Positions 6,660 through 8,327 of a DNA stretch of 43,920 bases are shown one piece after another. The notes under the pieces were generated by a model that was not told the origin of the DNA, made no database searches, and saw only the letters and a program-made list of their open reading frames with translations. Location of the stretch: contig JACQKT010000014.1 in NCBI GenBank assembly GCA_016204355.1, positions 1 to 43,920 of the forward strand. Reading direction: 5' to 3'. Made by a program: the position numbers and the translations under genes. Position 1 is the stretch's first letter; each line of letters begins with the position of its first letter. This DNA is from Candidatus Liptonbacteria bacterium (lineage in GTDB: Bacteria > Patescibacteriota > Minisyncoccia > UBA6257 > 2-01-FULL-56-20).

Positions 6660-6726
6660 TTTCTTTTCCGTATTTAAGAAGGTTTCTGAACCTGAAAAGA
6701 TTACAATTAACAAGATGAATTGTCAA

Positions 6727-7074
6727 TTAATTCGCTGCTGGCTCGGCCGGCGTTTCGGGCGCTTTCCCGGCGGAAACGGACACTGCAGTTTCTTTGCTTT
6801 CCAATTCTTTCTTTTTTATGGATATTTTTATTTTGGGCCCGCTTACGACTCCCTGTTTGACCAAAAGGTTATGAACGGTCGGCGTTGGCTTGGCGCCGAC
6901 GCCGAGCCAGTAACGGATTCTTTCCTGCGCGAAAGTAGCCGTTTTTGTTGACGGGTTGTATGGACCTAAATCTTCAGCCGGAGGACCTCCGAGCTTGGAG
7001 CGCTTTTCGGCGACAACAAGCCGATAACTCGGCTGATGTTTCCTGCCTACGCGTTTTAGTCTGATGACCAGCAT
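6727..7074 (-). CDS. rpsP: 30S ribosomal protein S16
   Basis: MLVIRLKRVGRKHQPSYRLVV, WLGVGAKPT. Confidence 0.97.
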   Translation of the reverse strand: MLVIRLKRVGRKHQPSYRLVVAEKRSKLGGPPAEDLGPYNPSTKTATFAQERIRYWLGVGAKPTPTVHNLLVKQGVVSGPKIKISIKKKELESKETAVSVSAGKAPETPAEPAAN

Positions 7075-7083
7075 TGTTTAAAG

Positions 7084-7105
7084 CCTATTCGACGCTGCTC
7101 AGGAC
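7084..7105. repeat. GTCCTGAG..GTCGAA element in front of rpsP
   Basis: Minus strand GTCCTGAGCAGCGTCGAATAGG, similar to GTCCTGAATTTTGTTGAAGG near 995-1014. Confidence 0.45.
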
Positions 7106-7178
7106 TAATTTGGAACATGCGTCAAATTAGTCAATATAAGATAGCACGCTCTTTTTTATTTTGCAACTTTATTTGTTG

Positions 7179-7196
7179 CGGGTCCGCCTGGATTCG
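7179..7196 (-). pseudogene. 3' fragment of a divergent tRNA-Trp
   Basis: CGAATCCAGGCGGACCCG-CAA versus intact CGAATCGGAGTGGGCCCG-CAA. Confidence 0.6.
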
Positions 7197-7211
7197 TCCC
7201 TCACCTTTTTG

Positions 7212-7283
7212 CGGGCCCACTCCGATTCGAACGGAGAACTTCGGTTTTGGAGACCGACATTTTGCCATTAAAACTATGGACCC
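7212..7283 (-). tRNA. tRNA-Trp(CCA)
   Basis: Acceptor GGGTCCA/TGGGCCC, anticodon arm TCGGT-CTCCAAA-ACCGA, T arm CTCCG-TTCGAAT-CGGAG. Confidence 0.96.
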
Positions 7284-7330
7284 AGTTTTTCAATTTTAAA
7301 AGGTGGGGGATTGAAGTCAATCAATATATC

Positions 7331-7350
7331 GCCATTGAAACTACAGACCT
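7331..7350 (-). pseudogene. 5' fragment of a divergent tRNA-Trp
   Basis: AGGTCTGTAGTTTCAATGGC versus intact GGGTCCATAGTTTTAATGGC (16/20 identical). Confidence 0.6.
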
Positions 7351-7414
7351 GTTAGTTTAAGGATAATATAATCAGCCCCAACCACACAATTGCCAAATTG
7401 CTCAATTGCTATTA

Positions 7415-7594
7415 TCACTTCCCCGTTATCCTTGTTTCCTTGTGAGTCGTTTGCTTGCGGCATTTCTTGCAGTACTTTTTGAGCTCGATTTTCCTTTCAA
7501 CTTTTTTCTTGTTCTTGCGAGTGTAATAGTTGCGGTGGCCACAAACGGAGCACTTCAGCGCTATTAAATTTTCCGAATATTTGGACTTCGCCAT
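7415..7594 (-). CDS. rpmG: 50S ribosomal protein L33, zinc-binding form (absent from ORF track, 59 aa)
   Basis: Hand translation MAKSKYSENLIALKCSVCGHRNYYTRKNKKKVERKIELKKYCKKCRKQTTHKETRITGK; lies between tRNA-Thr and tRNA-Trp. Confidence 0.97.
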   Translation of the reverse strand: MAKSKYSENLIALKCSVCGHRNYYTRKNKKKVERKIELKKYCKKCRKQTTHKETRITGK

Positions 7595-7648
7595 TCGAGT
7601 AAGTGGAAAAAAGTATATCTCAAGGCGATAAATTTTGCAAAATTTTTG

Positions 7649-7719
7649 AGCCCGAGGGGAGAGTCGGACTCCCGTTTACTCCTTACCATGGATTCGTTCT
7701 GCCGTTGAACTACTAGGGC
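7649..7719 (-). tRNA. tRNA-Thr(GGT)
   Basis: GCCCTAG/CTCGGGC acceptor (one mismatch), anticodon loop ATGGTAA, T arm GGGAG-TCCGACT-CTCCC. Confidence 0.85.
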
Positions 7720-8327
7720 TTTTCATTTAGTCCGACCATTATATTCCGTAATTTCGTATTTGAAAAGTAAAGCGTCAAAACGCCATATTTGCTTTTCTTA
7801 CAATAAGTGCCTAATTTCCCGGTTTTGGTAATTGTCGGCTTATAAAATTGGCTTCGCTTTATTCCCAGGTTTTTTGACCAAAAGAACATTGCTTCTTCAA
7901 AATTAATGTCGCTAAATAAATGCAAATGAAATTTAAACATGCTTTTGTCGATTCCATAAAACTTATGCATAAATTCCATAAACTTTTTTATAAGCCGCGG
8001 ATCAGAATTGCCGATTTTCACGGTATTCTTATCCGCCCTGGTCCCTTCGCCCCAATATAGTCCTATCCCCAAGCCGAACAATTTAGCTTCTTCAATATTG
8101 CGCGGAACGCTGAGGCTGAAGGGATCGCCGTCCGGATTATTCAAGGCGTAAATCGCTTCGCTAATACTCCGCTTTGGAATTACGTTTTTCTCAAGCCAAT
8201 AGTTTACTTTGTGCTCCGAGCAACCAAGCAGTTTGGCAATTTGCGCCGAGGACTTCCGTTCCCGCACATACAGTTTCTTTAACAAGTCGCCATCAATGGA
8301 ATTTTTGTCGGTATATTTCTTCATCAC
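7713..8327 (-). CDS. HTH + LAGLIDADG-like protein (GLYWGEG type), stop codon inside tRNA-Thr
   Basis: N-terminal HTH (SAQIAKLLGCSEHKVNYW), GIGLYWGEGT helix, then IGNSDPRLIKKF; AT-rich. Confidence 0.7.
   Translation of the reverse strand: MMKKYTDKNSIDGDLLKKLYVRERKSSAQIAKLLGCSEHKVNYWLEKNVIPKRSISEAIYALNNPDGDPFSLSVPRNIEEAKLFGLGIGLYWGEGTRADKNTVKIGNSDPRLIKKFMEFMHKFYGIDKSMFKFHLHLFSDINFEEAMFFWSKNLGIKRSQFYKPTITKTGKLGTYCKKSKYGVLTLYFSNTKLRNIMVGLNEKP

Follow-up and report, generated by a model that had tools for sequence, protein, structure and literature searches.

The window, the whole stretch of 43,920 nucleotides analysed here, belongs to a genome of 694 kb (G000; 90% complete) with matches in groundwater runs, and the feature under study lies on its contig C24. 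Along the minus strand, tRNA-Thr(TGT) is followed by a Nudix gene, an uncharacterised ORF, tRNA-Thr(GGT), rpmG, the feature and rpsP. The upstream neighbour rpmG (L33; 7415..7594, minus strand; Pfam Ribosomal_L33) defines the orthologous locus, and in relatives a tRNA-Trp also lies after it; the downstream neighbour is rpsP (S16; 6727..7074, minus strand; Pfam Ribosomal_S16). An ORF of 204 aa (7713-8327, minus strand) has an N-terminal HTH and a stop codon within tRNA-Thr(GGT). Its homologues are found near the tRNA-Thr/Trp locus in several relatives, are absent from others and belong to no named family; that it might be a nuclease is a guess. It was rejected as the mobilising enzyme, having weak HTH matches only, no Atlas family and no repeat of the kind described below around it.

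The feature consists of an intact tRNA-Trp between two inverted-repeat arms, nested between two parts of another tRNA-Trp, and the five pieces of this arrangement reported in the preliminary description were all recovered on the minus strand at unchanged positions. The inner gene, a tRNA-Trp(CCA) whose CCA end is not encoded (7212..7283, minus strand), was called at 7283-7212 by both ARAGORN and Rfam (57 bits), in agreement with that description, and is the sole tRNA-Trp among the 48 tRNA calls of the assembly (90% complete). It is preceded by an A-rich spacer of 14 nt which forms its leader (7284..7297, minus strand); in other tRNA cassettes the spacers measure 0-58 nt. The left arm is TCCCCCACCTTTT (7298..7310, minus strand) and the right arm AAAAGGTGAGGGA (7197..7209, minus strand), and they are complementary at 12 of 13 positions, as had been noted. 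An equally good 13-nt inverted repeat arose in 1 of 3000 shuffles of the 47-nt flanks, and a comparable one was present at two of the 86 tRNA-Trp loci tested, the present one and L088, the latter having been found via the arm itself. The cassette thus delimited (7310-7197) is 114 bp long and contains no ORF. With 10 nt added on each side, the arms fold at -1.5 and -3.2 kcal/mol; an arm does not pair with itself, and the two arms pair together. Minus-strand RNA of the feature forms nested stems (z -2.5). The arms are 13 bp here, compared with 17-22 bp on most members of the family described below. A search for the 13-bp repeat, which the preliminary description had proposed, returned no other exact copy of an arm in the window's genome, but the arm proved to be the terminus of a wider family. 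Derivation of the arm from the tRNA's own T stem was considered and dropped, because GIY-YIG elements and elements between genes bear the same terminus.

The outer fragments are the remains of a former resident tRNA-Trp. In a genome of the same genus (G001), one intact tRNA-Trp lies directly behind rpmG, and the alignment of the rpmG-tRNA-Trp loci of relatives identifies this orthologue as the empty site. The 5' relic (7331..7350, minus strand) covers positions 1-20, that is the 5' strand of the acceptor stem and the D arm, and matches G001 at 19/20 positions and the nested gene at 16/20. The 3' relic (7179..7196, minus strand) runs from the T-loop C to the discriminator base and matches them at 17/18 and 13/18. 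Across both fragments (38 positions; 87 tRNA-Trp rows compared) there are two differences from G001, nine from the nested gene and at least 12 from each of the other 85 rows, so that the fragments do correspond to the tRNA-Trp of a relative. The 5' fragment had been described as ending at 7331; instead, a decayed continuation (positions 21-37, to the anticodon loop; 7311..7330, minus strand) extends to 7311, where it abuts the left arm. This continuation shares 11 of 17 identities with positions 21-37 of G001 and has a 3-nt insertion, and 29 of 5000 shuffles were equally good. The left junction therefore falls in the anticodon loop, and the right arm directly precedes the T-loop C; the old gene has lost the 17 nt of its positions 38-54, without any duplication. 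The outer acceptor stem retains five Watson-Crick pairs, one G-T and one A-C mismatch, and both changes relative to G001 weaken it. The G-C at pair 7, which had been read as compensatory, is also present in G001 and is the ancestral state, not one selected in the relic.

The nested gene is 57/72 identical to that of G001, and its best match (60/72) is a gene of another genus (G110); its differences include paired changes in the acceptor and T stems. As a functional gene cannot drift further from its ancestor than its own pseudogene does, and given these paired stem changes, we infer that the nested tRNA-Trp is a foreign allele imported from elsewhere. The four tRNA-Trp genes seen in the genus are 58-79% identical to each other. 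The decay of the relic is uneven, with 2/38 differences at the ends and 6/17 in the middle (Fisher p 0.008, G001 having been chosen for its matching ends), a pattern for which neutral decay starting from the allele of G001 is not a good explanation.

An assembly chimera, which the preliminary description had named as a way in which it could fail, was not borne out by metagenome data. A single gap-free contig bridges the locus in each of two runs, across 6700-7720 with five differing letters in X1 and across 6700-7697 with one in X2; both runs come from one study, and possibly from the source sample itself. Neither an excised form, a circular form nor an empty allele in the same population was seen among the contigs of these runs. 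No RNA dataset is listed as containing the stretch, a fact without bearing on its expression.

The arrangement recurs at tRNA loci of other genomes. In another Patescibacteria genome (L088/L093) the same arms enclose a different inner allele within different outer halves, and the junctions are those of the window, on the left after position 37 and on the right at the T-loop C; the right junction was preselected by the search pattern, the left one was free. There, an undecayed equivalent of the 5' relic continuation ends at the same position as in the window. Identical junctions in two genomes could stem from one old event spread by recombination. The same right arm stands before a T-loop 3' relic in G053, L088/L093, L092 and L063, and a variant of it in G004. 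The loci of G053 and G004 were found via the tRNA and not via the arm, and the arm or its variant nevertheless precedes the same T-loop position; the tRNA-Trp locus of G053 is a three-level nest. In genome G881 the arm is present at three tRNA loci, as a full nest at Thr, as a left arm with a 5' relic at Val and as a right arm with a 3' relic at Trp.

In a survey of tRNA-Trp loci of the family, a flanking relic within two mismatches of some allele was found at 9 of 78 loci and none at the remaining 69, a count from which two duplicates, two arm-found loci and five genomes of other families are left out. In each of four controls, 0 of 87 rows had such a relic. Among the 101 loci of the survey, 14 lacked an ARAGORN tRNA-Trp (chance matches or contig ends), and four contig-end matches were left out. 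Interrupted relics, as in G004 and G011, are missed by the count of nine. Within the window's own genome, four more of the 44 tRNA genes scanned are nested in fragments of the same tRNA with a related inverted repeat around them, all on the minus strand: tRNA-Ala(CGC) at C3:3978-4049, tRNA-Gly(CCC) at C3:10340-10413, tRNA-Pro(GGG) at C6:11243-11314 and tRNA-Glu(CTC) at C26:13771-13846. Some of these nests are split again by other palindromes. Elsewhere in this genome a 'Ser(TGA)' call (C10:1804-1889) has an unrelated perfect 12-bp repeat on either side, and there is an Ile(TAT) call (C20:2620-2692) of a kind unusual among bacteria.

At two further loci, L039 (G061) and L014 (G011), a foreign tRNA-Trp immediately follows the anticodon arm of an older copy and no inverted repeat is present, so that nested genes arise in more than one way. 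Two genomes have a second, very different tRNA-Trp gene behind a similar protein-coding context, at L120 (G049) and L153 (G014).

In 401 genomes of the order, a sample that does not include G053, the right arm followed by CGA was found in the window only, and the left-end pattern in 401 genomes of the phylum gave three other matches, none at a tRNA. Scans of sequence collections for the right junction returned stretches from metagenomes (19), genomes (33) and viruses (4), the majority of them chance or terminator-like; those related to tRNA-Trp were L061, L081, L088, L093, L092 and L063 only, and L103, L091 and L104 are hairpins without a tRNA. Two paired-arm scans of viral contigs gave 0 and 0 matches. 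Rfam called tRNAs only in 12 related loci.

Of 125 genomes of the family, 46 contain the terminus AARGGTGRGGGAY, with 182 matches in all compared with 19 for the reversed control, and three genomes are particularly rich in it (40, 27 and 24 matches). It brackets GIY-YIG-only elements of about 295 bp, non-coding elements of about 130 bp, and tRNA genes. Among the 150 matches listed of the 182, inward-facing pairs comprised four with a GIY-YIG gene (292-301 bp), the pair of the present locus and 44 others. All 44 were retrieved; 40 were without a tRNA and four carried one (Val, Ala, Ala, Pro), and among the matches listed each of these four tRNAs lies inside fragments of the same tRNA. Of the 40 tRNA-less pairs among the matches listed, 39 measure 92-150 bp and one 360 bp, and many sit at a stop-start junction; 35 read AT at both ends and some have longer repeats there, the search pattern having permitted only T or C at the end position behind this reading. 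AT at both ends was seen in only one of seven tRNA cassettes. The loss of target sequence at these cassettes amounts to 5 nt for Val, 5 nt for each of the two Ala, 11 nt for Thr and 17 nt for each of the two Trp, with Pro, itself nested, left out, and no target duplication was found at the window locus or at five other tRNA cassettes. The arms of L248 lie directly against either end of the tRNA, and the repeat of L249 and of L258 runs into a copy of the tRNA's first bases. Between paired termini (four pairs, among the matches listed) GIY-YIG genes were the only coding cargo found, and no inward pair 0.4-3 kb apart, the size of an insertion sequence, was present among the 150 matches listed of 182; diverged ends would escape both observations.

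The family also includes empty hairpins (L103, L287). That of L103 (1486-1512, minus strand; 27 bp) has the same ends and flanking triplets as the window and lies in frame in a gene which we take to be holB-like; other hairpin copies are intergenic (L091, L104). In a spirochaete genome (L190; G884, C5:221544-221598), a 55-bp hairpin with the same terminus was observed in the 5' region of an apparent 23S rRNA. At L204/L279 (G138, C37:21352-21773) a GIY-YIG element of the family has a non-coding family member inserted into its right end.

In G053, the same arm is found on both sides of an 86-residue ORF, L192:487-744, located between two housekeeping genes and matching Pfam GIY-YIG at 57 bits. 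The encoded protein has Tyr, Gly, Arg, His and Glu where catalytic residues are expected, at positions that we presume to correspond to those of I-TevI. Its nearest solved chains are UPF0213 and SLX1, and no NCBIfam model passes. Homologues were found in 59 of the 125 genomes of the family. Among the best 30 homologue loci, ranked by similarity to one of the terminus carriers, six have this terminus, all of them among the nine most similar, and about ten have related termini; related but different termini tightly bracket other GIY-YIG homologues. Four of the best 30 (L210, L217, L225, L228) are nests of nuclease and tRNA together behind a 5' relic. On a tree of the nucleases, the six with this terminus require one change, compared with a mean of 5.6 for shuffled labels, and the branch uniting them has a support of 75/75 (68% of bootstraps). 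As a DNA query against 301 genomes of the class, the G053 element gave one weak match. The window's genome, which is 90% complete, holds no nuclease with exactly this terminus; it does have an intact GIY-YIG frame of 90 codons (GTG start) enclosed by a perfect related 19-bp inverted repeat (C3:44448-44738) and a frameshifted homologue (C27:14004-14194). At L212, L214 and L215, GIY-YIG elements with related termini lie near the 5' end of an apparent RNA gene, presumably RNase P RNA by its motifs; Rfam made no such call in L212.

The preliminary description had offered two readings, that a cassette bounded by inverted repeats replaced the centre of the resident tRNA-Trp, or that the fragments are scars of repeated integration. 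The former is upheld by the empty site in the same genus, the recurrence of the junctions with other alleles and the membership of the arms in a mobile family; the latter is not supported, as a duplicated att core is lacking, 17 nt are lost and both ends of the old gene are displaced. Beyond the anatomy, the empty site, the differing allele of the cargo, the shared termini and the cognate nesting, which are directly visible, the 114-bp cassette is probably a non-autonomous, tRNA-carrying member of a mini-element family whose mobilisation by a small GIY-YIG nuclease is predicted. It is also fairly probable, as read from sequence, that the GIY-YIG protein acts in trans by cutting the paired ends and the target, with host repair completing the insertion. 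The nuclease would be made from a full element elsewhere, and would cut the target as well as the paired termini or the DNA next to them. Host repair would then join the ends with little or no homology, leaving a short duplication where the target is a gene start and a short deletion where it is a tRNA gene. The cassette would reach the tRNA gene that matches its cargo either through guidance of pairing by the cargo, or because only such insertions leave a working gene, or both, and the relics would then be neutral debris. All four unselected cassettes were cognate, though landings at gene starts should be tolerated, which suggests that cargo guidance as well as survival bias lies behind the cognate nesting; four cases are few.

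The variable junctions fit a nuclease with repair better than a transposase with a fixed duplication, and this bears on the possibility of a conventional MITE moved in trans by an unseen transposase (DDE or HUH type), with the GIY-YIG gene a mere passenger like the tRNA. The AT at both ends of most tRNA-less pairs would be compatible with a 2-bp target duplication (within a pattern that allowed only T or C), and the sizes of 92-150 bp with a high copy number in few genomes are typical of MITEs. We nevertheless regard this origin as unlikely, as the matches listed contain no pair of insertion-sequence size, GIY-YIG is the only conserved coding cargo and is tightly bracketed by related termini in other homologues too, and the tRNA sites lose 5 to 17 nt with no duplication and rarely read AT at both ends. 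Less likely again is a two-step history, in which an empty element broke the resident gene in a cell with a spare copy and the tRNA gene recombined in later. Two genomes (G019, G020) do have a palindrome in the anticodon loop of the relic with the intact gene outside it, the nested tRNA of G061 has no repeat at all, and empty hairpins of the terminus exist; yet two rare events would be required at each of seven loci, and the abutting arms of L248 and the repeats of L249 and L258 that enter a copy of the tRNA start are as would be seen for a cassette that moved ready-made.

A role of the outer fragments and arms at the RNA level, as a split or intron-containing tRNA or a processing stem, would suit the nested stems of the minus-strand RNA and the better preservation of the relic ends than of the middle. 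It is highly improbable, however, given that the joined outer halves are without the 3' anticodon strand, the variable loop and the 5' T strand and have a changed anticodon, that both changes relative to G001 weaken the outer acceptor stem, and that most family tRNA-Trp loci show no relic at two mismatches or fewer. tRNA genes attract misjoins in metagenome assemblies, but a chimera, or a locally triplicated tRNA-Trp that decayed and has an inverted repeat by chance, is close to negligible when the fragments are much closer to another allele than to the inner gene, the repeat is a terminus known within the family and single contigs bridge the locus in two runs. Scars of tyrosine-integrase islands at the T loop and anticodon loop, later deleted, are very unlikely and largely refuted. 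Both junctions do lie in loops named as crossover subsites in the available text of PMC4383910, and at L063 the right arm and 3' relic stand at the end of an island-like stretch. According to the same text, though, integration restores the gene with the help of the gene's 5' part and leaves a single fragment behind, whereas at the present locus both ends of the intact gene are foreign and the two halves of the old one are displaced, there is no repeated core and 17 nt are lost; the same termini are moreover found at gene starts and on GIY-YIG elements.

In the literature searched, which comprised main texts largely from outside subscription journals, neither nested tRNA cassettes nor the present elements were found to be described; the available part of PMC10714607 deals with archaeal split tRNAs and CPR rRNA introns only. 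One shared terminus links three kinds of sequence, the mini-elements with a nuclease only, the derivatives that resemble MITEs and the tRNA genes that lie within dead copies of such genes. The nuclease-mobilised cassette favoured here offers a candidate pair of enzyme and substrate, a protein of 86 residues and a repeat of 13-20 bp, for mobility without a known recombinase, and a possible route for the horizontal replacement of single-copy essential tRNA genes. More tentatively, the sequences may point to a class of Patescibacteria elements without a transposase or integrase, about 300 bp long with one GIY-YIG nuclease and short inverted repeats, whose derivatives might pick up entire tRNA genes and, by means of them, locate and replace the essential gene that matches; tRNA alleles would then be traded between genera and old genes would pile up as nested shells. 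If true, a very small nuclease that places cargo at a matching gene would be of interest as a tool.

Free-standing homing endonucleases such as SegB of phage T4 are GIY-YIG nucleases associated with tRNA genes which spread linked DNA by cutting and repair, and the association with tRNA genes is a likeness to the present family. Homing copies a region between long homologous flanks, and is not known to involve terminal repeats or non-autonomous derivatives at many unrelated sites. The cassette contains no nuclease ORF, and GIY-YIG genes and tRNAs are nested together at L210, L217, L225 and L228. Bacterial MITEs have short terminal inverted repeats, are about 130 bp long and non-coding, occur in copy bursts in single genomes and have a longer coding partner with the same ends. 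The terminus family is likewise multicopy and non-coding with short terminal inverted repeats, but the coding partner found at the loci covered is a nuclease of 84-90 residues instead of a transposase, some members carry tRNA genes, and the junctions vary from duplications of 2-6 bp to deletions of 5-17 bp, with no duplication of fixed length. A split or intron-containing tRNA would not be formed here, as the joined halves lack positions 38-54 and the anticodon is altered.

The Ssn family (Chenal et al. 2025, PMC11893778) consists of GIY-YIG single-strand nucleases with NTS/SRM hairpins, and the NTS-ssnA-NTS arrangement has been raised as a mobile element. It resembles the present elements in that a small GIY-YIG gene of a single domain lies tightly between two sets of repeats, and SsnA is a precedent for a small GIY-YIG protein that cuts beside a DNA stem or flanking repeat. 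Each SRM is its own hairpin, however, whereas each arm here supplies one half of a long-range repeat and forms no fold of its own. The degenerate SRM motif had 0 matches in the window at 7100-7420 and in eight related loci, and the available main text of PMC11893778 has no mention of 'tRNA' or 'Patescibacteria'. CGTC-tagged REPs (Di Nocera et al. 2013, PMC3733652) are described in the accessible text as having an unpaired CGTC, an 8-9 bp stem starting A-T, a 4-5 nt loop and a CCA tail. There is a likeness in that the right end starts CGTC on the plus strand and that empty members are short hairpins, one of them in frame in a gene (L103), but the stem start is not A-T, there is neither a CCA tail nor a 4-5 nt loop, and most members of the family end in AT.

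Genomic islands that target tRNA genes (Islander, PMC4383910), as far as the available text describes them, also split a tRNA gene whose function is kept, with a displaced fragment marking the end of the element. The cassette differs in having no integrase, in measuring 114 bp where islands measure 2-200 kb, in carrying a whole gene instead of a fragment, and in leaving two relics and a target deletion where islands leave a repeated core. Neither a tyrosine integrase gene nor a restored gene with a single fragment and an att core was found. By analogy, the cassette is like a MITE in its probable working and like a tRNA-restoring island in its outcome.
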